A DNA stretch of 25,500 nucleotides from Candidatus Burarchaeum sp. (GCA_030646255.1 JAUSNF010000014.1:1-25500); one strand, 5' to 3'; shown: positions 2 through 9,480, counted from the first letter of the stretch. Notes: generated by a model not told the origin, from the sequence alone. Numbers and translations are program-made.

Positions 2-1165
2 GAGGCCGTGAAGCTGGAGGCGTGGCGCGACTTGTTCCTGCACATAGGCAAAGTTTCAAAAGATAAGAAGACCATCCTGGTTATTGACGAGTTCCAGAGG
101 CTGAAGAAAATTGCGCCAGGTTTCATAACCGAGCTGCAGAACCAGTGGGATTCTGCGCTGAAAAACAATCCCCTGATGATAATACTCGTGGGCTCTTCCA
201 TAGGGATGATGAGGAAAATAGCCATGAGCCCGCACGGCGCGCTTTATGGGAGGAAGACTGCGCAGATGCAGCTGGAGCCGTTCAGGTACGCGGATTTCAG
301 GCAGGTGTTTCCCGGATTGACGGAGGCGGAGAAAGTTGAGTGGTATTCCGTTTTTGGAGGTACGCCGGCCTATCTCGAGCTTGCCCGCAGGCAGCCCACG
401 CTCATGGATGCAATAAAGAAGGTGGTGCTGGAGAAGGAGGCACCGCTCAGGGAAGAGCCGAAGAACCTGCTGGAGTTCGAGCTGGAGGTAATTGCGAGGT
501 ACAACTCCATACTGCAGGCAATAGCCAGGGGCAAGAGGACAATAAGGGAAATGTCCGATGAAACCAAAATCGACCAGACCACGCTTCCGGCCTACCTGAA
601 CAGCCTGCGGAACCTGCTGGGGCTTGTGAGGCGCAAAGACCCCCTTTTCGGCAAGAAGAACCTTGGCAGGTATGCGCTGGCGGACAACTTCTTCAGCTTC
701 TGGTATTCTTTTGTGCTGCCCCATGCGTCCGGAATCGAGATAGGGAACCTAGAGGCGCCCCTCGCGGCCATCCACCGCGACCTGCCGGCCCATGTGGGCC
801 GCTGCGTGGAAGAGGTTGTCAGGGAGCTTTTCATCCTCTACAACGGGCGCGAGATGAAAGGTGTGAAGCTGGACTTTGAAAGGATAGGCGCCTGGTGGGA
901 CCGCAGCGGCAATGAGATAGACCTTGTGATTGACGGCAAGGAGGAGCTGCTACTGGGCGAGATAAAATGGACCAACAAGCCCATGGGCGCTGACATACTG
1001 TACGAACTGGAGAAAAAGGCTGCATTGGTGCCGAAGGCAGGGAAGAGGCAGTTTGTGCTGGTCAGCAGGAGTGGGTTCGAGCCCGCCTGCCTGAAGAGGG
1101 CACAAGAGATGGGGTGCCTCACGCTTGACATAAAGGACATTGAGGGTCTTTTCGACAAGGCATAG
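2..1165 (+). CDS. Archaeal AAA+ ATPase (Arch_ATPase/PF01637-like) with C-terminal DUF234 domain. The reading frame is open to the window edge, so the gene is 5'-truncated and Walker A lies upstream.
   Basis: A Walker-B-like 'ILVIDEFQRL' sits near the N-terminus. The C-terminal half has the DUF234-type region that accompanies archaeal ATPases. The frame is open from nucleotide 2, and the GTG at 8 is only the first in-window start. Confidence 0.55.
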   Translation, partial: EAVKLEAWRDLFLHIGKVSKDKKTILVIDEFQRLKKIAPGFITELQNQWDSALKNNPLMIILVGSSIGMMRKIAMSPHGALYGRKTAQMQLEPFRYADFRQVFPGLTEAEKVEWYSVFGGTPAYLELARRQPTLMDAIKKVVLEKEAPLREEPKNLLEFELEVIARYNSILQAIARGKRTIREMSDETKIDQTTLPAYLNSLRNLLGLVRRKDPLFGKKNLGRYALADNFFSFWYSFVLPHASGIEIGNLEAPLAAIHRDLPAHVGRCVEEVVRELFILYNGREMKGVKLDFERIGAWWDRSGNEIDLVIDGKEELLLGEIKWTNKPMGADILYELEKKAALVPKAGKRQFVLVSRSGFEPACLKRAQEMGCLTLDIKDIEGLFDKA

Positions 1166-1183: not shown

Positions 1184-1885
1184 ATGATTAAGGCCATTCT
1201 TTTTGATTTGGACAATACTTTGCTGGACTTTTCCGGCTTTAAGAGAGGGAGCGCGATTGCAGCTGCCAAGGCCATGAGGAAGGCTGGCGTGAAGGCAAAG
1301 GAGAAGGAGCTGTGCAGGCGCATCTGGGCTGTTTATGATGAGAAGGGCATTGAGTACCAATATACCTTCAGGGATGTGCTTTTGGGCTATGGGTTGGACC
1401 CGCATGCGCACGAGAGGGCTCTGCAGGCTGCAGTGATAGCATATACAAAGAAGAAGTACGCACTGCTGAGGCCCCGGCCCCGCGTCATTTCAACGCTTTC
1501 CTCGCTCAGGCGCAGGTTCAAGCTGGGCATTGTGACTGACGCGCCCAGGGAGAAGGCATGGCAGAGGCTGATACTTTCAGGCCTGGACGGCTTCTTTGAT
1601 GCTGTTGTAACGTATACTGATACCGGGGAGCTGAAGCCCTCTTCTGCGCCGTTCATGCGCGCCTGTGGGCTGCTCAAGATAAAGCCTTCGGAGGCGCTGT
1701 TTGTAGGGGATAACCCTGAACGCGATATTCTGGGCGCGAAGAAGGCGGGAATGCGCACGTGTTTGGCGGCTTACTACGGGAAGTTTGGGTGCGGGGAAGT
1801 GGCGGATTTCACGATTAGGAGGTTTGAAGAGGTGGGGAAAATAAAGGAGAAGGAGGAGAACATCGTCTCCTCCCACCTCGCCTAA
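1184..1885 (+). CDS. HAD-superfamily hydrolase (haloacid dehalogenase-like phosphatase, subfamily IA-like).
   Basis: The N-terminal motif I 'FDLDNTLLDF' has the DxDxT pattern. A later 'VGDNPERDILGAKKAGMRT' matches HAD motif IV (GDxxxD). The start is preceded by GAGGTTGTG, and the gene is 18 nt downstream of the ATPase gene. Confidence 0.75.
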   Translation: MIKAILFDLDNTLLDFSGFKRGSAIAAAKAMRKAGVKAKEKELCRRIWAVYDEKGIEYQYTFRDVLLGYGLDPHAHERALQAAVIAYTKKKYALLRPRPRVISTLSSLRRRFKLGIVTDAPREKAWQRLILSGLDGFFDAVVTYTDTGELKPSSAPFMRACGLLKIKPSEALFVGDNPERDILGAKKAGMRTCLAAYYGKFGCGEVADFTIRRFEEVGKIKEKEENIVSSHLA

Positions 1886-2179
1886 TGGATCAGGCCAGCC
1901 GCCAATCCTAAGACAGCTAGGAAGCCGATCCAGGCGAGAAGATTTTTAATGTCTTCCGTGACCTCACCTCCCCGCATAATTCGCCCGTTCAGGTACCTTT
2001 TTAAAGAGAAGCTGAGTAAGCATATTGCCGATATGTTACTGCCTTCCGAACCGGGCTTGTTTGCGGATTTTTGTCCGAAAGGTTTGACTTCTCCTTATAA
2101 ACTAGACCTATCAAATTACTTCTTAATAAATTTTTTGTTTTGCAATGCAATTGGTTGAACTGCTGGACGGGGCGATTAA

Positions 2180-4927
2180 GTGGCCGAAATCACGAAAGAA
2201 GAAGCCAAACAAAAAGTAGCTGAACTACTTGAGGACTGGCGCCGCGAACATCCACAAGGCCCGCCTAGAACGTTTAATGAGGAGAATACTAAACAGTGGA
2301 TTGACGAACTATTTCACCGACTCGGCTGGAATCTTCGGACAGACTTGTCGAAAGAAGAAAGAAGTGGGAGGCGAAAGCGCGTCGATTACGCCTTCAAGAT
2401 AGAAGGTACTGTTCAGTTTCTGCTAGAGGCCAAGAAACCCAGCGAGAACCTTGATGATCATATCGATCAGGCAGTAGAATATGGCTACCAGAACAGCAAG
2501 AAATGGGTTGTTTTGACTAATTTTGAGGAAATACGGATATACAACTCAGAATACTGGAAGGAGGCAGAACAAACGAGGCGCCTTGTTACGCCGTTGAAGA
2601 TCACAGACTTCCTTACGCGCTTTGACGATCTGTGGCTTCTGAGCAAACCGGCCTTCGAAGAGCGACTAATTGAGAAAATAGCTGCACAGTATGGAAAGGC
2701 AAAGCCAAAGGAGCCGATAACTAAGATATTGTCTGATGATATGGAGAGGTGGAGGAAACTGCTTACGAAAGGCATAAGCGAGCACAGAAATCTTAACAAA
2801 ATACCTTCTGAGCCAGAGCAGGCAGAGGAATACATAGATGAAATGGTGCAGCGCATTCTTGATAGGATTTTGTTCATTCGTGTTGCAGAGGATCGGGGGA
2901 TTGAAGAACCAGTACTGGAGAACGCGCTAAGGAATTGGCAAGTAGACAAAAGCAAACCGCTGTCTGAATATCTGCGCCATGTTTTTAGAAAGATGGACGA
3001 CATTTATAACAGCGGCATTTTCCGAGAGCATGAGTCTGAGAAGCTAACCATAGATAATGAGAGTTACAGGCAAATCATAGATGAAAGTTACAAGAGCCCC
3101 ACTGGCCTGAAATACAATTTTGACGCGATTGATGCAGACATACTTGGATGTGTTTATGAGCAATATCTGAGCATTCTACTCAAAAAGACAGCTAAACGCA
3201 CGTCCTTGAAGGCGAGCAAAGGAAAAAGAAAGGAACAGGGAATCTACTACACGCCCACGTACATTGTAGATTACATAGTCAAAAACGCCCTTGGCGAAAT
3301 GCTGAAAGACAAGAAGCCGGAGGAAGTAGCGAGGCTGAAGGTGCTGGATCCTACTTGTGGCTCTGGTTCGTTTTTGATAAAAGCGTTTGACGAGATTAAG
3401 AGCTACTACAAGAACCAAAAGGGTCAGCAGAAGTTGAATGTGGACTCTCAAATACTTACACAGAATATTTACGGTGTAGATTTGGACTCAAAGGCGGTTG
3501 AAATAGCACGGCTCAATCTGCTTCTGAAGGCAGCTGAAACCAAACATAAATTGCCTGAATTAAACAATAATCTCAAGCAAGGAAATAGTTTTATTGAAAG
3601 TGAAGCTATCGCCGGAGACAAAGCGTTCAAATGGGAAAAACAATTTGCCAGTGTGTTTACAGATGGCCGCTTTGATGTAATTATTGGCAATCCACCCTAT
3701 GTTCACCAAAAAGGCGAGAAAGACGCTCCGAAAATTTCTTATTTGGAACGAGAATACTACCGCCAAAACTACACTTCAGTATATTCAAACGAAGTTAAAA
3801 CTAGAGGTGGGATAAAACTAAACTTGTTTGTGCCATATGTGGAACGAACAATAAGTCTTCTGAAGCCTATGGGTTTTCTCGGTTTCATAGTTCACAAAAA
3901 CGTTCTGAAAGTTGAATCATATAAACTACTTAGAAAATATATACTCGACAACTGCAGCATAGAACAAATAGTGGATTTGGGGGCTGGCGTTTTTTCAGAG
4001 GTAACTGGAGAAACCGTAATAATGATTCTAAAAAAGGAACCGAATTCTTCAAAGAGAAATGGCCACGAAATAAAGATAAGATATGGCCTTACGAATCCTG
4101 CCGATCTTCTTAACAATAAAGGCAAGACGACGCACCTAAAGCAAGAAAATTTTCAGCATTCTGTTGACCATATGTTTGCAATATATGTTGATGAGCGGGT
4201 AGAGTCGTTGAAAAATAAGCTATCAGTTAAATCGAAAAAATTAGACGAAGTAGCTAGAATAGTGTCATTTGGGCTTAACACCAAAGACAATAAAAAATAT
4301 CTTTCATTTGAAAAGTTAAACGGCGCTTACAAGCCCGTTGTGCTTGGCAGAGATGTTGGAAAATACGTCCTTAGAACACGAAACCGATTCGTGCTTTACG
4401 AAAGCAAAGTATTGGATAGAGTTGGAGATTTGGAGGCATTTAATAGCCCAGAAAAACTAATTTTTCAGAGAATAGGTTCTGGACTTATTGGAGTTTATGA
4501 TGACGAAAGATTCTATTGTTTTAACTCCACAAATATGATTCTCCCAAAACAAACTATTTTACAAAATCAAATTAAGCTAAAATATTTGCTAGGAATTTTG
4601 AATTCCAAATTAATGAACTATTACTATCGGGCTGTTTTCTCTACAGAATCAAGCCTTACAGTTAATGTAACGCAAGGATACCTTAGTCAACTACCAATAA
4701 AAATGGTCTCTGAACAAGAACAAGAACCAGTCATAAAGCTGGTTGACAAAATACTCGCCCTTAATCGCCGGCTCTTTGAGATCGGTAGCAAGAAAACAGA
4801 CGAGCGGGCGGAGGTCGAGGCAGAGATACAAAAAAGCGACGCAGAGATAGATGATCTTGTCTACAAACTTTATGGCCTTACGGAAGAAGAAAGGAAAATG
4901 GTTGAAAAGAACACTACTTCGGATTAA
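2180..4927 (+). CDS. Type IIL/IIG restriction-modification fusion enzyme (MmeI/Eco57I-like). It has an N-terminal PD-(D/E)xK nuclease, a gamma-class N6-adenine methyltransferase and a TaqI_C-like target-recognition domain.
   Basis: The 915-aa protein is close to MmeI in length (919 aa). Its N-terminus has D...EAK ('VDYAFK...LLEAKKP'). It has the 'YYTPTYIV' (HYT-like) motif, SAM motif I 'VLDPTCGSGSFL', and catalytic motif IV 'IIGNPPYV'. The C-terminal 'LLGILNSKLMNYYYRAVF' is TaqI_C-like. The gene is visibly AT-richer than the flanking genes. Confidence 0.8.
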   Translation: MAEITKEEAKQKVAELLEDWRREHPQGPPRTFNEENTKQWIDELFHRLGWNLRTDLSKEERSGRRKRVDYAFKIEGTVQFLLEAKKPSENLDDHIDQAVEYGYQNSKKWVVLTNFEEIRIYNSEYWKEAEQTRRLVTPLKITDFLTRFDDLWLLSKPAFEERLIEKIAAQYGKAKPKEPITKILSDDMERWRKLLTKGISEHRNLNKIPSEPEQAEEYIDEMVQRILDRILFIRVAEDRGIEEPVLENALRNWQVDKSKPLSEYLRHVFRKMDDIYNSGIFREHESEKLTIDNESYRQIIDESYKSPTGLKYNFDAIDADILGCVYEQYLSILLKKTAKRTSLKASKGKRKEQGIYYTPTYIVDYIVKNALGEMLKDKKPEEVARLKVLDPTCGSGSFLIKAFDEIKSYYKNQKGQQKLNVDSQILTQNIYGVDLDSKAVEIARLNLLLKAAETKHKLPELNNNLKQGNSFIESEAIAGDKAFKWEKQFASVFTDGRFDVIIGNPPYVHQKGEKDAPKISYLEREYYRQNYTSVYSNEVKTRGGIKLNLFVPYVERTISLLKPMGFLGFIVHKNVLKVESYKLLRKYILDNCSIEQIVDLGAGVFSEVTGETVIMILKKEPNSSKRNGHEIKIRYGLTNPADLLNNKGKTTHLKQENFQHSVDHMFAIYVDERVESLKNKLSVKSKKLDEVARIVSFGLNTKDNKKYLSFEKLNGAYKPVVLGRDVGKYVLRTRNRFVLYESKVLDRVGDLEAFNSPEKLIFQRIGSGLIGVYDDERFYCFNSTNMILPKQTILQNQIKLKYLLGILNSKLMNYYYRAVFSTESSLTVNVTQGYLSQLPIKMVSEQEQEPVIKLVDKILALNRRLFEIGSKKTDERAEVEAEIQKSDAEIDDLVYKLYGLTEEERKMVEKNTTSD

Positions 4928-5765
4928 GAAAGTGCTTTTCGATGTGAATTATTTGTGTTTTCGGAATGACAAGCTCCGTAGGATGAGCCGTCAAGTTGTC
5001 AGGTAATCCTTTCGTAGCATCTACATAAAAAGAGCGTAGAATAATCTCTGTTTTCGTTTCAGTTCTAAGATATCCGATGTACTTTCTGCGAGTAGTTATA
5101 ACCTCATATATGCAGAAGTCGGGAGATAGGAGGAGGGTAATCGCACCGTAATCATAACTAAGTGATACAATTAGTAAGAGTATCGGTGCGCTGAAGAAAA
5201 ATAAAGCCAGAAGTTGTGAGCAGCCATAAAGTGCGCAGTTGTCAGAGAACTTAAGCATAAAAATAAAACAGAAACCTACAAATCCAGAATAGGCAAGAAC
5301 ATTTATGATGAAATAGACTAGTTGATAGAAAAGAACGTTTGGACGCGTATGATTATTCAAGAAGCCAATAATGTCTAAATCAGAAACTTGTTTAAATGCA
5401 GGCAAATCACTGAACTTAGCTTTTAGCTGGCTTTTCATTGATCTCTTGAACTGTTTATCATAAAGAAATCGAAATAGCTGAGCTTGGTTTGTAAATTCCA
5501 AATTACTTTTTTCTTCATACTTAAAGCATACATAATTCTTTGCAGTAAATAGAAGGAGAGTAATGAGACCCAATACACTGACTACCCAAAGAGAATTATA
5601 ATGAGTCTCCAACAAACTAAAAGATAAAAGAAAAATTAAGAACGAGAAAAACAAGGGAACTATCAGAAATGTGAGAACATTCTGACCATATTTCTTTAAA
5701 GCATTGAAACCTTTAGGCGAATATGAAGAAAGACTGTTTAAAAATGCAGATGAAACATCTGGCAT
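4914..5765 (-). CDS. Polytopic membrane protein of unknown function with about 5 to 6 predicted TM helices. It is AT-rich and convergent with the RM gene, overlapping it by 14 bp.
   Basis: Long hydrophobic stretches include 'VLTFLIVPLFFSFLIFLLSFSLL', 'LWVVSVLGLITLLLF', 'VLFYQLVYFIINVLAYSGFVGFCFIFML' and 'LLALFFFSAPILLLIVSL'. Its codon and GC usage matches the neighbouring RM gene, not the GC-rich flanks. Confidence 0.5.
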   Translation of the reverse strand: MPDVSSAFLNSLSSYSPKGFNALKKYGQNVLTFLIVPLFFSFLIFLLSFSLLETHYNSLWVVSVLGLITLLLFTAKNYVCFKYEEKSNLEFTNQAQLFRFLYDKQFKRSMKSQLKAKFSDLPAFKQVSDLDIIGFLNNHTRPNVLFYQLVYFIINVLAYSGFVGFCFIFMLKFSDNCALYGCSQLLALFFFSAPILLLIVSLSYDYGAITLLLSPDFCIYEVITTRRKYIGYLRTETKTEIILRSFYVDATKGLPDNLTAHPTELVIPKTQIIHIEKHFLNPK

Positions 5766-5796
5766 AATTACTTACAACCTCACTCACGTAGTCCCT

Positions 5797-6753
5797 TTAC
5801 ACTCTCCTTTCATTCATCCTTCCCATCCCGGGCCTTCTCGAGAAGCCGGAGTTTCCGCCGGGTCTCGGCGAACCGGTCGGGCCGGACGGGCCGGATGAAC
5901 CGGCGGGGCGGGAGGAAATGGGCGGACGGACTGGAGCGGGCTTGACGGGCGCATCCTGAACGGCCTTGAAGCGAGCTTCGAACTGTTCCTTCAGCTTCGC
6001 GCCTATGGGATTGTGCGTGAAGGCATCGGCCCTGGCGCAGATGACCAGCTTGGTGGACAGCGCACGCGCAATCTTCCCCCGCATGTGCTTGGGCGACATC
6101 GAGATGGAGGCGTGCTGGAATATCAAGCCGTGCTTGGGCGGGTTGGTGCCCTTCTTCAGGTGCTTGAAGAGCGCCTTCTCAGCCCCGAGCACTTGCAGTG
6201 TGGAGGCGGGCATCATGGCCAGCTTGCGCAGAGAGCCTGCGTGCGCTATGAGCTTGGCGGCCAGCTCAGGCCCTGCTAGTAATGAGAGGTTGGGAGCTAT
6301 TTCATTGGCCAGGGAAGCCTGGTATTCCTCGAGCGAGGTGCGGTAGGCATAGAGGTCCTCGAGCTTGTGCGCAAGTTTGGTCATCTCGGCCAGGTCGGCA
6401 GTGCTGAGCTTTGCGCCTATGCTCGTCTTTGCCTTTGACTCCAGCTCCCGCGCCTTCTGCTCCCCTATTATTGGGGCGAGGTCGGATGCCTGTAAATCTT
6501 CACGGTTGATGAGCTGCACCAGCTTGGCAAAGGTGGGGGGCTCGGCTACGCGGAGCTCCGGGAAGTAGACTGCGTACCATTCGGTAAGGGTTTCATAGAG
6601 TAAGTTGGATGCCCTGTTCACCTCGAAGATTGCCTTCACGGTGTGCGAGAGGAGCAGGTCGCGCGCAGCGTGCGCTTCCCTCAGCATTGCCTTGGTCTCT
6701 TCCAGGAAGTCGCGCTTCTTGGCGCGGGGCCTATTCTCCATGCGGTTGTCCAT
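5797..6753 (-). CDS. nop5: Nop5/Nop56/Prp31-family protein (NOSIC plus Nop domain). It is a short form lacking the N-terminal fibrillarin-binding domain, with a Pro/Gly/Ser-rich C-terminal tail.
   Basis: 'LTEWYAVYFPEL' is the NOSIC hallmark and is followed by a Nop-domain core ('LLAGPELAAKLIAHAGSLRKLAMMPASTLQVLGAEKALFKHL'). The protein starts directly at the NOSIC region at about residue 55. A 'TTTAAAA' TATA lies about 27 nt upstream on the minus strand. Confidence 0.75.
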   Translation of the reverse strand: MDNRMENRPRAKKRDFLEETKAMLREAHAARDLLLSHTVKAIFEVNRASNLLYETLTEWYAVYFPELRVAEPPTFAKLVQLINREDLQASDLAPIIGEQKARELESKAKTSIGAKLSTADLAEMTKLAHKLEDLYAYRTSLEEYQASLANEIAPNLSLLAGPELAAKLIAHAGSLRKLAMMPASTLQVLGAEKALFKHLKKGTNPPKHGLIFQHASISMSPKHMRGKIARALSTKLVICARADAFTHNPIGAKLKEQFEARFKAVQDAPVKPAPVRPPISSRPAGSSGPSGPTGSPRPGGNSGFSRRPGMGRMNERRV

Positions 6754-6801
6754 GGACTAGTTTAGGGGGAAGAGGATTTTAAAGGTTTAGAGGGGGCTGG
6801 C

Positions 6802-7209
6802 TTACCTGCGATGATATTTGAACTTCTTGTCATAATCAGGATGCGAGGAGATTTCCAGAATGTTGGCACGTATTTCCCCATCGTCGTTGCCTTTTTCAGT
6901 TGAATATGACATGCGCCATCTGTTGGCTAGTTCAACGTGGAAGAGGTTGGTTGCACCGTATTTGAGTATGTAAGAGACAGGTATTTTGCCCTTGCCAACT
7001 GATTTTCCGTACTGGAAGTCGGCTGCAATGCGGTCGCATTTGTAGTCTACAGATTTCAGGATTGCCCGGTCGAACTTGGAGGTTGCAGCCGTCTCTTTCA
7101 GGTGTCGGTAGGTCTCGGCTGCTTCGGGAGAAAAACGGACTCTTACAAATCTTTCAGGTCCACTCCGTGGAGTTTCATGTATTTTGCCATCTTGGGGTTG
7201 TACATCCAA
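6802..7209 (-). CDS. RelE/YoeB/ParE-superfamily toxin-like ORF. Homology starts near 7146 and no in-frame ATG or GTG is available. Translation may start at the TTG at 7209, overlapping the upstream gene, or the gene may be a pseudogene.
   Basis: The C-terminal 110 aa are 'VRVRFSPEAAETYRHLKE...GKGKIPVSYILKYGATNLFHVELANRWRMSY...'. This matches RelE/YoeB topology, with an 'i.FS..A..dlk.L'-type N-terminus and a GKGK...RiiY-like core. The six-frame ORF 6802..7506 is an artefactual extension with a low-complexity N-terminal half read through another gene. Confidence 0.4.
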   Translation of the reverse strand: MDVQPQDGKIHETPRSGPERFVRVRFSPEAAETYRHLKETAATSKFDRAILKSVDYKCDRIAADFQYGKSVGKGKIPVSYILKYGATNLFHVELANRWRMSYSTEKGNDDGEIRANILEISSHPDYDKKFKYHRR

Positions 7210-7436
7210 GTTATTCCGCGTGAGCCAAAGGCTATCTTGTTGCTTCTGTCCAGGTAGTCGAGTATGACCATCAGCGTGTTGTGGTTCACCTGCTTTGGCA
7301 GGCACCTCTTGAGTTGGGCTACCGTGATGACGCTTTCGTCCATTTTGGTCAGCACCTTCTCCACCATCAGAATCGTGTTCAGCGTGGGCGAGTGCGCCAC
7401 CTCGTATGTCGGAGTTGCAGATGCCAAAGTAATCAC
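7143..7436 (-). CDS. Small hypothetical protein immediately upstream of the RelE-like ORF. It may be its antitoxin or a wHTH regulator.
   Basis: The 97-aa ORF ends with TAA at 7143-7145, one codon from where toxin homology begins in the +1 frame. The listed start is GTG, inside a GGTGA motif. TTG at 7427 or the ATG for 'MVEKVL' at 7367 are alternatives. An AT-rich promoter region with 'TTTATAAAC' lies upstream on the minus strand. Confidence 0.35.
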   Translation of the reverse strand: MITLASATPTYEVAHSPTLNTILMVEKVLTKMDESVITVAQLKRCLPKQVNHNTLMVILDYLDRSNKIAFGSRGITWMYNPKMAKYMKLHGVDLKDL

Positions 7437-7493
7437 CTTTTGATACTAGTTGATAATTAATTGATATAAGTTTATAAACGTATGCATCAGTGT

Positions 7494-7892
7494 TCATTTT
7501 ATGCACCCGGCAACTACATCAAGGAATTCACGGGCTCCTTTTACGAAATAGTCGGCATCCTGCAGGGTGAACATCTGCCTGCCATAGTCTGCGCCGCTCT
7601 TGGCGTGCAGGGCGCGGGAGAGGAGGGAGTGGAAATGCTCATGAGTTTTCTCGAGCTTGCCCTGCCTGAGGAGGTCGAGGAAGAGGAAGGGCATGTCGTC
7701 ATGCCTTGTGGCCTTGCGATTGAGGAAGTGTATTGTGAGCGCATCGTTGGCTCTTATTATTGCGTGTATTGCCTCTGCACAGGCTACTGAAGCTGGCGCG
7801 CCAGTCTTGCAGTGCGAGAGCGCGAGCTCGGCTGTGCTGAGCCATTCGCGCGCCTCGCTTAGGGCTTTTTCCGCAGTGTCGGTTTTGCTCAT
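7494..7892 (-). CDS. HEPN-domain protein, the putative toxin/RNase partner of the adjacent MNT.
   Basis: The protein is 132 aa and all-helical, with an R-x(n)-H motif ('IRANDALTIHF'). It sits directly downstream of a nucleotidyltransferase gene, which is the classic HEPN-MNT arrangement. The ATG start was verified at 7890-7892. Confidence 0.65.
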   Translation of the reverse strand: MSKTDTAEKALSEAREWLSTAELALSHCKTGAPASVACAEAIHAIIRANDALTIHFLNRKATRHDDMPFLFLDLLRQGKLEKTHEHFHSLLSRALHAKSGADYGRQMFTLQDADYFVKGAREFLDVVAGCIK

Positions 7893-7929
7893 CAGAAGAA
7901 TGGCTGAGAATGGGCTTTTAAAGCGTTGC

Positions 7930-7949
7930 AGGGTGGGGAGCGGGTGACT
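7930..7949. repeat. Left copy of a perfect 20-bp inverted repeat (AGGGTGGGGAGCGGGTGACT) flanking the wHTH-MNT gene.
   Basis: The reverse complement, AGTCACCCGCTCCCCACCCT, occurs at 8537-8556. It was checked base by base. Twenty perfect base pairs would not occur by chance in 25 kb. Confidence 0.85.
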
Positions 7950-8487
7950 ATTTGAGCTGCCTGGTTTTCTTGCCTTTCAGGAATGAAAGGAGCTCGGTGC
8001 GGGAGGTGAAGAGAAGGGGCACGAGCTTGAGGCGCGTGCGCTCGTGGAAGGAGAGAATGAGGGGCTCGGGAGAGTAGGTTTTGGGTGCAAGGAAGGCGAG
8101 GTCGATGTCGCTCTCGGGCTTCTCCTCCCCGCGCGCAGTGCTGCCGAAGAGGTGGGCCTCCTTTATTTCTTTCTCGTTTGCAAGGAGGCGCTTGAGCGTT
8201 GGGAGGCTTACTTGGTGGGAGGAAGGAAAGGAGATGAGTTTGTTAAGACGTGAGAAGAGGGGGCTTTTGCGCAGCTCAATGACGCGCGCCCTGCCTATAG
8301 TGCTTACATCTATCAGGCCGGCACGCCGCCAGAGCTCGACTGCACGCCAGGTTGATGCAAAAGGCACTTTCGCAGTGAGCGAGAGCTCGCGTATAGTGAA
8401 TTTGCGGTTCGGGAAGCGGCGCAGGGTCAGGAGGAGCTCCTGGCTGCCCTTGAAGCGCACAAGGTCTACGAGGTTCATATGATCCAC
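7948..8487 (-). CDS. Winged-HTH plus minimal nucleotidyltransferase (MNT) protein, the putative antitoxin/regulator of the HEPN protein.
   Basis: 'HLFGSTARGEEKPESDIDLAFL' is the GS-x(9-13)-DxD NTase motif. The N-terminal 'FTIRELSLTAKVPFASTWRAVELWRRAGLI' is wHTH-like. The start is GTG at 8487 or ATG at 8478. The TAG stop at 7948-7950 lies inside the left 20-bp inverted repeat. Confidence 0.75.
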   Translation of the reverse strand: MDHMNLVDLVRFKGSQELLLTLRRFPNRKFTIRELSLTAKVPFASTWRAVELWRRAGLIDVSTIGRARVIELRKSPLFSRLNKLISFPSSHQVSLPTLKRLLANEKEIKEAHLFGSTARGEEKPESDIDLAFLAPKTYSPEPLILSFHERTRLKLVPLLFTSRTELLSFLKGKKTRQLK

Positions 8488-8520
8488 TTCTGGATAATAT
8501 GATCCAAAGTTGGATAATAT
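8476..8520 (-). promoter_or_regulatory. Operator-like repeat array overlapping the MNT start. It has 2 copies of ATATGATCCA and 2 copies of TGGATAATAT, which together form the imperfect palindrome TGGATAATATGATCCA.
   Basis: ATATGATCCA is at 8477-8486 and 8497-8506. TGGATAATAT is at 8491-8500 and 8511-8520. Read on the minus strand, a TATA-like TTTATATTATCC lies upstream. Confidence 0.5.
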
Positions 8521-8536
8521 AAAGGTTTCGCCTTCA

Positions 8537-8556
8537 AGTCACCCGCTCCCCACCCT
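8537..8556. repeat. Right copy of the perfect 20-bp inverted repeat flanking the wHTH-MNT gene.
   Basis: AGTCACCCGCTCCCCACCCT is the exact reverse complement of 7930-7949. The two copies delimit a 627-bp segment containing only the MNT gene and its 5' region. Confidence 0.85.
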
Positions 8557-8601
8557 CCCAGGGTTTATATGCGCAATTGGCGAGCTTTTGACGGGGATGA
8601 A

Positions 8602-8880
8602 ATGAAAATAACTGCGGAAGTTACGAAGCCGGAATTGGATGCGTTGGAACATTTGTGCATATGCATCCCTTTGTGCGAGAAGCATAAGCAGCTGGATCTA
8701 GATGCGCCGCCGAAGGATTGCAAGAAATGCGCCAAGATTGAGAGAGAATGGTGGGGGCATTCATTTGACCTATGGAGCAAGCTTACGACGGCATATCTGA
8801 GGGCGCTGGGAAAACCGCTGTTATGCCAGGATAAGAAAGGACGTTTATATGTTGCGAGGAGATGGGTGAAGAAGAAATAG
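8602..8880 (+). CDS. Small Cys-rich hypothetical protein, possibly zinc-binding.
   Basis: The ORF 8569..8880 contains 'HLCICIPLCEKHK...DCKKCAK'. The likely true start is the internal ATG at 8602 ('MKITAEV'), about 33 nt after the TATA-like GTTTATAT at 8562-8569. There is no recognisable family signature. Confidence 0.3.
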   Translation: MKITAEVTKPELDALEHLCICIPLCEKHKQLDLDAPPKDCKKCAKIEREWWGHSFDLWSKLTTAYLRALGKPLLCQDKKGRLYVARRWVKKK

Positions 8881-8922
8881 GTATTTATATGTTACCATAT
8901 AAGAAGTGTATAGGTGGTTATA

Positions 8923-9168
8923 ATGACTTATACGACTATTCAAGTGGAGAAGGAAACGCGGGAGAAGCTGGCGGACCTGAAGGAGTACAATAGGGAGACT
9001 TATGATGAGATTATCAGGAGGCTGGTGAAGGTGTTTGAAGTTGTGAGGGATGAAGAAGGGGAGCTGACAGAGGAAACTAGGAAGGCAATTGAGGAGGGGC
9101 TGAGGCAAGCTGATGGAAAGAAAGGCATGACCACAAAGCAGCTCCTGAAGAAACTTGGAGTGGAATGA
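8923..9168 (+). CDS. relB: RelB/CopG-like antitoxin, partner of the downstream RelE.
   Basis: The protein is small and acidic ('TIQVEKETREKLADLKEYNRETYDEIIRRLV'). A GGTGG lies 5 nt upstream of the ATG at 8923, and the listed ORF start at 8914 is an upstream GTG. The stop overlaps the RelE start within ATGA. A TATA 'TATTTATAT' is at 8882-8890. Confidence 0.6.
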   Translation: MTYTTIQVEKETREKLADLKEYNRETYDEIIRRLVKVFEVVRDEEGELTEETRKAIEEGLRQADGKKGMTTKQLLKKLGVE

Positions 9169-9422
9169 TGCCTTATGAACTTCTTTGGATGCCGAAGGCG
9201 CTGGATTCACTTAAGGGGCTAGATAATGAGAATATCAAGGGAATAACGAGAAAACTAGAAGAAGCAAGGGAATTTCCAAGGCATTTCTGTTCGAAGCTGA
9301 CAAACTCGCCGGCCAGCACAGTACGAATTGGAGATTACAGGATTTACGCCAGAGTAAAGGAGGCGGAGAAGATTATCGAAGTCGTGTACGTGGAGCACAG
9401 GAAGAAGGCGTACAAACCATAA
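9165..9422 (+). CDS. relE: RelE/ParE-family toxin.
   Basis: The 85-aa protein has 'YELLWMPKALDSLKGLD' and 'VRIGDYRIYARVKEAEKIIEVVYVEHRKKAY', the canonical RelE beta-sheet core and C-terminus. It overlaps the antitoxin by 4 nt. Confidence 0.8.
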   Translation: MMPYELLWMPKALDSLKGLDNENIKGITRKLEEAREFPRHFCSKLTNSPASTVRIGDYRIYARVKEAEKIIEVVYVEHRKKAYKP

Positions 9423-9480
9423 AAACGGATAAAAAGTGTTGTGGCACTAATTACGGCCTAAGGCGTTGTGAGGTTTTCAA

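Follow-up and report, generated by a model that had tools for sequence, protein, structure and literature searches.

An AT-rich region beside the nop5 gene of Candidatus Burarchaeum sp. raises the question of how it came to lie there and whether it displaced the gene for fibrillarin (flpA). The analyzed window is the entire 25.5-kb contig of a metagenome-assembled genome (MAG) from the Micrarchaeota (DPANN). The region in question (1950-5796) carries a Type IIG restriction-modification (RM) gene and, convergent on it, an open reading frame (ORF) for a membrane protein. According to the original prediction, both genes form a horizontally acquired island that was inserted into, or replaced part of, a nop5-flpA operon. 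Our analysis makes it likely that a mosaic Type IIG gene and an orphan membrane ORF currently occupy a variable slot on the 3' side of nop5, from which no flpA was displaced.

The AT-richness of the region was confirmed. Its GC content is 0.396, whereas all 318 other stretches of 3847 nt along the contig fall between 0.512 and 0.589 (mean 0.548), and these sliding windows exclude a uniform base composition. The bias extends to the codons of both genes: the RM gene has a GC content at third codon positions (GC3) of 0.42 and the membrane ORF one of 0.335, compared to 0.60-0.77 in the flanking housekeeping genes. A 500-nt profile varies between 0.31 and 0.47 within the region and is stepped, with a GC content of ~0.45 at 2180-3590 and ~0.36 at 3600-5765. 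The right edge is very sharp: GC content rises from 0.33-0.37 to 0.65-0.75 in ~100 nt at the nop5 stop codon, and the boundary was placed inside the 31-nt spacer between the start of the membrane ORF (5765) and the nop5 stop (5797). The left edge lies between 1900 and 2100, in the intergenic region that separates the RM gene from a HAD-family hydrolase gene. An independent Logan assembly (L001) reproduces window positions 5204-9477 at 100% identity over 4274 nt, including the nop5/membrane ORF junction. Upstream, synteny with Ca. Burarchaeum australiense (L002) is found for genes encoding an EF-Tu-domain protein, a class II aminoacyl-tRNA synthetase, OGG and PolD DP2/DP1.

The RM gene is a mosaic of two histories

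The RM gene combines two histories, and the breakpoint between them could be resolved. In B9_G16 (L003/L004/L011), a related Micrarchaeota MAG with a 76% identical Nop5, a convergent RM gene of 914 aa lies next to nop5 and beyond it a HAD gene, the product of which shares 53% amino acid identity with that of the window. An enzyme of this family is therefore present between HAD and nop5 in a relative that has no flpA there, a situation that the original prediction had named as a sign of an ancestral arrangement and that speaks against a single recent insertion. The L003 enzyme (P0122) is identical in architecture to the window enzyme and represents its syntenic orthologue. Identity between the two is 70-88% in every 60-aa interval up to aa 460, and P0122 is the closest relative of this N-terminal part (80% compared to at most 68% for all others), with 100% bootstrap support for the pair in neighbor-joining (NJ) analysis. 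Window positions 2192-3700 are 73.2% identical to the B9_G16 RM gene at the nucleotide level, and nop5 is 73.3% identical.

From aa 481 on, identity to P0122 collapses to 19-40%. The enzyme is 57-85% identical over aa 441-860 to P0123, which is encoded in an unrelated context (L009), and positions 3229-4698 match L009 at 68% nucleotide identity. In the NJ analysis of the C-terminal part, the window enzyme grouped with P0123 in 100% and with P0122 in 0% of the bootstrap replicates. The alignment switches at aa ~470-476 (nt ~3590-3605): the sequence goes with P0122, P0125 and P0127 upstream of this point and with P0123, P0124 and P0129 downstream of it. An insertion past the breakpoint (VHQKGEKDAPKISYLEREYY) is common to the window enzyme, P0123, P0124 and P0129 only. 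GC3 drops at the breakpoint from 0.43-0.60 to 0.24-0.37, and a near-invariant block of the methyltransferase (MTase) part (aa 432-470, nt 3473-3589) lies directly before it.

The same pattern is found among related enzymes. Six members of the N-part clade share 65-84% mutual identity in aa 1-460 and 23-34% in aa 481-860, and the GC3 step recurs at the same junction in the L003 gene and in the L008 gene (0.65-0.83 to 0.30-0.43 in the latter). From this contrast in identity and the recurring GC3 step, the conserved N-terminal part appears to repeatedly receive foreign AT-rich modules, each made up of the catalytic half and the target recognition domain (TRD), by crossover in one conserved block.

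These observations point to the following as the likely course of events. The 5' 1.4 kb of the RM gene has probably resided in the HAD-nop5 slot since before the split from the B9_G16 lineage, and the 3' 1.3 kb, from the NPPY motif to the TRD, was probably replaced by a homologous crossover in the near-invariant MTase block (aa 432-470). The incoming AT-rich allele belongs to a different module group, and the recognition sequence presumably changed with it. By analogy to characterized enzymes, the N-terminal PD-ExK nuclease is expected to cleave the DNA some distance away from an asymmetric site, while the gamma-class N6-adenine MTase would protect the host DNA and the single C-terminal TRD would direct both activities alike. 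The membrane ORF, equally AT-rich, was most likely brought in together with this module or added later as further cargo, and nothing ties it to restriction. The proposed horizontal acquisition is upheld insofar as exchange shaped the island, but a single recent insertion does not agree with a 5' half that is syntenic in B9_G16 and has diverged to the same extent as nop5.

In MmeI-family enzymes, a single TRD sets cleavage and methylation specificity together (PMC2731914). As cleavage and protective methylation would therefore be guided by the same domain, a swap can alter specificity without a lethal mismatch. Movement of TRDs and other domains by recombination (domain movement, DOMO) has been described for the Type I S and Type IIG specificity genes of Helicobacter pylori (PMC3077401, PMC3983042). 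The window gene resembles these cases in that alleles at one locus combine common conserved parts with unrelated recognition modules and in that the exchange takes place at conserved flanking sequence. It differs in that the host is a DPANN archaeon, in that the swapped unit comprises the NPPY-containing catalytic half of the MTase together with the TRD, in the foreign composition of the incoming modules (GC3 ~0.3 compared to 0.5-0.8) and in an exchange between distant lineages instead of strains. The RM gene itself is an ordinary defense gene, and specificity change by recombination is well known in bacteria. The value of the locus lies in a clean, breakpoint-resolved replacement of a specificity module in a DPANN archaeon and in a compositional signature that is found in three genomes.

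P0123 itself (783 aa; L009:3126-5907) lacks the N-terminal nuclease domain. Its gene is located beside a HEPN_AbiV gene, with a separate 110-aa ORF directly upstream, and it may represent a split or decayed enzyme in a defense context. A scan of viral contigs with the C module of the RM enzyme detected no relatives.

Domain structure and class of the enzyme

A complete single-chain enzyme with nuclease, MTase and TRD had been predicted, and all of these parts were identified. Pfam searches with the 915-aa protein yielded HSDR_N (and, weakly, MmeI_N), Eco57I (136 bits), N6_Mtase (103 bits) and TaqI_C (75 bits), and the PADLOC profile REase_MTase_IIG (PDLC03604) matched aa 8-710 with 357 bits. 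The PD-ExK nuclease domain (aa 1-160; D69 at nt 2384-2386, E83/K85 at nt 2426-2434) is followed by a helical linker (aa 161-345), MTase motif I LDPTCGSG at aa 389 (nt 3344-3367), the catalytic motif IV NPPY at aa 504 (nt 3689-3700) and a TaqI_C-type TRD (aa 719-840, nt 4334-4699). An active bifunctional nuclease-MTase family is argued for by this sequence pattern, because D69, E83 and K85 of the PD-ExK triad, motif I and NPP of the NPPY motif are invariant across an alignment of 60 homologues. The family is large (5967 proteins at E<1e-20) and is present in DPANN archaea, Thermoplasmata and several bacterial phyla. The NCBI entry that is 100% identical to the window enzyme carries the name 'N-6 DNA methylase'. 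Type IIG systems average slightly less than one per archaeal genome (PMC10609329).

The combination of nuclease and MTase in one chain, motif I ahead of NPPY, a C-terminal TRD and matches to curated profiles and structures identifies the protein as a Type IIG enzyme. Its AlphaFold2 (AF2) model (pLDDT 85.9) was matched over the full length by Foldseek to BREX PglX/BrxX, the Type IIL enzyme DrdV (7LO5, E 6e-23) and the Type IIG enzyme BpuSI (3S1S), while CamA and M.BseCI were matched through the MTase and TRD of the model. A sequence search of the PDB with the N-terminal 345 aa gave no significant match, only spurious designed-repeat hits. Enzymes of the Type IIG class with an Eco57I-type MTase and a TaqI-type TRD have the same domain order in one chain of ~900 aa, although the solved examples share only 12-13% sequence identity with the window enzyme. 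Eco57I itself is accompanied by a companion methyltransferase gene. A scan of ORFs on the 25.5-kb contig revealed no companion MTase, and a solitary position of the enzyme on this contig would fit self-sufficient protection, which in the MmeI family relies on methylation of one strand only.

The designation as MmeI-like and Type IIL holds for the architecture, as illustrated by the full-length fold match to DrdV, but not for the family. Domain order is the same as in MmeI, and a D-x13-ExK motif is found near residues 70-85, a position like that in MmeI. The Pfam models for the MmeI-specific domains (PF20464, PF20465, PF20466 and PF20467) gave 26.3 bits for MmeI_N and 20.1 bits for MmeI_hel, both below the cut-off of 27, and no match for MmeI_TRD and MmeI_C; the TRD is of the TaqI_C type. 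MmeI_Mtase (PF20473) reached 61 bits against a cut-off of 27, but the aligned part of the profile is limited to positions 16-154 of 259, and higher scores were obtained with both Eco57I and N6_Mtase. MmeI was found neither among the sequence matches to solved structures nor among the top 50 fold matches. Because the MmeI-specific N-terminal, helical, TRD and C-terminal domains are sub-threshold or absent and MmeI is not among the matches, the protein is a single-chain Type IIG enzyme with MmeI/DrdV-like architecture that stands outside the MmeI family. A further difference is that specificity in characterized members of that family varies mainly by point changes in a similar TRD, whereas the whole module from NPPY to TRD was replaced here.

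BREX PglX/BrxX provided the best sequence match and the best full-length fold match among solved structures and has the Eco57I-like MTase core in common with the window enzyme. PglX lacks an N-terminal PD-ExK nuclease. An identity with PglX was rejected, as the NCBIfam score was 150 bits compared to a cut-off of 500 and no brx/pglZ partner was present among the scanned contig ORFs.

Nop5, fibrillarin and the variable slot

Linkage of nop5 and flpA is common in other archaea, and the absence of flpA next to the window nop5 had been taken as a sign of its displacement. No fibrillarin gene is indeed present among the window ORFs, but the window is the whole contig and this absence therefore says little about the genome. 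A comparison across the phylum was more informative. A fibrillarin probe, validated against PF01269 at 337 bits although with no fibrillarin-bearing nop5 locus as a positive control, found no match within 6 kb on either side of nop5 in any of 80 Micrarchaeota species genomes. PF01269 was likewise absent from the precomputed neighbor annotations at the nop5 loci of the relatives. A search of the literature on fibrillarin in Micrarchaeota or DPANN yielded nothing specific. Replacement of a nop5-flpA pair, as originally suggested, is not supported by these data, and nop5-flpA synteny should not be assumed for Micrarchaeota.

The Nop5 protein itself points in the same direction. Its match to the NCBIfam aNOP56 model (417 positions) is confined to positions 124-385, and it aligns from residue 122 of the Sulfolobus solfataricus and residue 126 of the Pyrococcus furiosus Nop5 (solved chains). 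The coiled-coil and Nop domains are retained and the N-terminal domain (NTD) is absent. In characterized Nop5 proteins, the NTD binds fibrillarin. With few exceptions, the homologues of other Micrarchaeota are just as short (255-325 aa), and judged by this protein length the NTD is apparently missing throughout the phylum. Membership of the locus in a nop5-flpA box C/D operon was thus rejected: a nop5 homologue is present and a co-directional gene begins within 31 nt after it, as in such an operon, but this gene encodes a membrane protein instead of fibrillarin and Nop5 has no NTD. The question arises of how, or whether, box C/D-type RNA methylation works with such a Nop5.

A different set of genes is conserved beside nop5. 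In 50 of the 80 loci, nop5 is directly followed by a gene for a calcineurin-like metallophosphoesterase (MPE, ~210 aa), which is present within a distance of 6 kb in 72 of them, and a GNAT acetyltransferase (~130 aa) is found within 6 kb in 54 of the 80 genomes (loci of this kind among L012-L089 include L013:6604-7242 and L017:7457-7849). The arrangement is also seen at L092:6255-7315. Another DPANN genome with a 413-aa Nop5 (P0017) has the same trio in the order nop5-Metallophos-GNAT. In the Burarchaeum-like clade (the window, L002, L003, L006 and L007, with Nop5 proteins at least 75% identical), the MPE/GNAT linkage is wholly missing. What was lost from the 3' side of nop5 is a conserved linkage to MPE-GNAT and not to flpA, and this loss predates the clade.

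What takes this place varies between members of the clade. In Ca. B. australiense, a separate AT-rich island of ~3.2 kb (L002:11000-14200; GC content 0.34-0.43 compared to 0.57-0.63) lies directly after nop5. Besides a gene for an N6_N4 DNA methyltransferase it contains an unassigned ORF of 239 aa and two small ORFs, and a different RM system may thus be present in the same slot. L007 carries two AT-rich membrane-like ORFs directly after nop5, and L006 has no AT-rich cargo there. The slot of B9_G16 holds the Type IIG gene alone and that of the window the Type IIG gene and the membrane ORF. Because related genomes hold other AT-rich cargo directly 3' of nop5, this side of the gene is a recurrently used hotspot for variable AT-rich cargo in the Burarchaeum-like clade.

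No integrase domain was detected in any scanned ORF of the contig, a tRNA scan of the contig found none, and a search for repeats flanking the island gave short matches at chance level only, with no convincing direct or att-like repeats. An integrase-mediated genomic island was rejected on these grounds. As tRNA, integrase and flanking repeats are all missing, turnover of the slot by homologous recombination via the conserved flanks is more likely than site-specific integration.

A broader proposal would join a remodeled Micrarchaeota Nop5 system with a nop5 3' end that serves in the Burarchaeum clade as a dedicated landing site for AT-rich defense cargo, and we regard this combination as rather doubtful. 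The first part builds on the missing fibrillarin-docking domain, on the lack of an adjacent flpA and on the presence of MPE near nop5 in ~90% of genomes, usually together with GNAT; if it were true, Nop5 could act as a fibrillarin-independent, Prp31-like scaffold or recruit the methyltransferase in a different way. If the second were true, a conserved Type IIG N part would acquire new foreign specificity modules again and again via a fixed crossover block.

Alternative histories and neighboring genes

Several observations weigh against a long-resident 5' part and a later module exchange in a variable slot. Only one relative has the RM gene in the slot, and Ca. B. australiense, L006 and L007 are without it. 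The 5' part is AT-rich compared to the host (GC3 ~0.49 versus ~0.7) in both the window and L003 despite its nop5-like divergence, and the GC3 of nop5 differs by 0.25 between the window genome and B9_G16. The N part in L008:8001-9400 shows a host-like GC3 (0.65-0.83), while window 2180-3590 and L003:12136-13644 stay AT-rich. Given this uneven amelioration, the gene as a whole could also have been exchanged more recently. The nearest known relative of the 3' module, P0123, is no closer than the identity given above (57-85%), L001 ends before the point where the C module meets the membrane ORF, and a joint arrival of these two is suggested by adjacency and common composition.

An alternative is independent acquisition, in which the window lineage and B9_G16 each took up the entire RM gene at the hotspot from a common pool of mobile AT-rich alleles and no part of it was inherited vertically. 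In its favor, the N part departs from host composition in both genomes, the large family occurs in many phyla and genomic contexts, the gene is missing from Ca. B. australiense, and the slots of L002 and L007 contain unrelated AT-rich cargo. Two separate entries are nevertheless unlikely, as the nearest relative of the N part is exactly the syntenic one, its nucleotide divergence equals that of nop5, a HAD gene flanks the RM gene in both genomes, and no integrase, tRNA or att-like repeat marks an entry.

The membrane ORF could be regarded as a partner of the RM enzyme, and its properties bear on this question. It is convergent on the RM gene with an overlap of 14 nt and co-directional with nop5, starting 31 nt past the nop5 stop. 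Hydropathy and an AF2 model (pLDDT 74.8) indicate four transmembrane (TM)-like helices and a C-terminal five-strand beta domain. Searches of Pfam, NCBIfam and PADLOC gave no match, and fold searches with the model were uninformative. A search of 1.84 billion cluster representatives recovered only 8, including 7 distant homologues at 24-28% identity over the full length. The family is too divergent for a pattern search; a word-indexed search recovered two members and a scan of metagenome contigs one known contig, and viral contigs contained no relatives of the protein. The ORF is absent from L003 and 100% identical in L001. NCBI annotates it as a 195-aa hypothetical protein that starts at M89. 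Because distant homologues align from residue ~8-23, the sequence comparison favors the 283-aa form with two extra N-terminal TM helices. With low confidence, the ORF, with function unassigned, is viewed as hitch-hiking cargo that probably came with the C module, because the two are adjacent and of the same composition.

A two-gene defense system, with the membrane protein as an effector or sensor of the RM enzyme, would fit the tight convergent packing, the overlap, the common composition and the fact that membrane effectors are common in defense systems. We consider it very unlikely, as no PADLOC, Pfam or PHROG-type signal was obtained for the membrane ORF, the fold searches provided no clue and the convergent orientation excludes co-transcription with the RM gene. 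Moreover, the syntenic RM gene in L003 stands without the membrane ORF, and in L090, the only other context of the family that could be recovered, the 10 kb upstream contain no RM gene.

An artefact, either a chimeric metagenome assembly or mis-binning in which co-occurring strains or organisms were joined at conserved sequence, is highly improbable. The contig does stem from a MAG, and the breakpoint falls directly after the near-invariant ~117-nt block, where assemblers can mis-join. However, L001 confirms the nop5/membrane ORF junction, both flanks are syntenic with relatives, and the same design, in which a GC3 step separates a conserved N part from a divergent and AT-rich C part, is found again in L003 and on the 160-kb contig L008. 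Finally, a single recent 3.9-kb island that carried both genes into a nop5-flpA operon and displaced fibrillarin is hardly credible: the strongly atypical composition, the membrane ORF exactly in the co-directional spot downstream of nop5 and the linkage known from other archaea speak for it, but they are outweighed by 80 of 80 Micrarchaeota genomes with no fibrillarin within 6 kb of nop5, an apparently phylum-wide Nop5 with no fibrillarin-binding NTD and with MPE and GNAT as its conserved partners, a 5' half with a syntenic orthologue and nop5-like divergence in B9_G16, and an island that is two-layered in both composition and phylogeny.

The features of the variable slot and its flanks are listed in Table 1; the gene coordinates and motifs of the original prediction proved correct. 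The promoter of the RM gene presumably lies in the HAD-RM intergenic region, and a GAGGT on the minus strand of the spacer may represent a Shine-Dalgarno-like motif.

Table 1. Features at the variable slot beside nop5 (positions in the 25.5-kb window)
Feature	Position	Strand	Evidence and remarks
HAD-family hydrolase gene	1184-1885	+	Pfam Hydrolase/HAD_2; GC 0.546, GC3 0.68; left flank of host composition, synteny anchor
HAD-RM intergenic region	1886-2179		Left compositional transition; 100-nt GC from 0.53 to 0.34-0.37 at 2051-2150
Type IIG RM gene, intact, 915 aa	2180-4927	+	Pfam, PADLOC, AF2 fold matches, invariant catalytic residues
RM gene, resident part: nuclease, linker, S-adenosylmethionine-binding MTase part	2180-3589	+	Orthology with P0122 (L003)
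Recombination breakpoint, aa ~470-476	3590-3605	+	Alignment switch and GC3 step
RM gene, exchanged specificity module: NPPY, rest of MTase core, TRD, C-terminal helices	3599-4927	+	Affinity to P0123
Membrane ORF, 283 aa	4914-5765	-	GC 0.35; hydropathy, AF2 model
Spacer, 31 nt	5766-5796		Right compositional boundary of the island
nop5 (aNOP56), without N-terminal fibrillarin-binding domain	5797-6753	-	Pfam Nop only; GC 0.608; right flank of host composition

At the start of the contig, an ATPase_2/DUF234 protein is encoded at 8-1165 (+), cut by the contig start; it matches the PADLOC candidate family PDC-S27 (112 bits) and is 68% identical to the ATPase that is encoded immediately after the RM homologue of L008 (L008:10790-12205). 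The RM gene and this ATPase may be recurrently associated.

On the other side, a toxin-antitoxin-type cluster is located upstream of nop5 (7494-9430). It consists of a HEPN gene (7494-7892) with an MNT nucleotidyltransferase gene (7948-8487) and a second pair of DUF7557 (8914-9168) and ParE (9165-9422). Ca. B. australiense lacks this block in the interval from the EF-Tu-domain gene to nop5, and B9_G16 carries a frameshifted HEPN gene and a remnant of an MNT gene at this position. Also upstream of nop5 lies a stretch of lower GC content (0.467) at 6802-7506 (-). A RelE/ParE-like identity was considered for this segment but was not supported, as Pfam finds no match. Gene prediction divides the segment into two short genes (~85-97 and ~89 aa), while one 233-codon frame across it shows 68.7% amino acid identity to L002:9253-9948.

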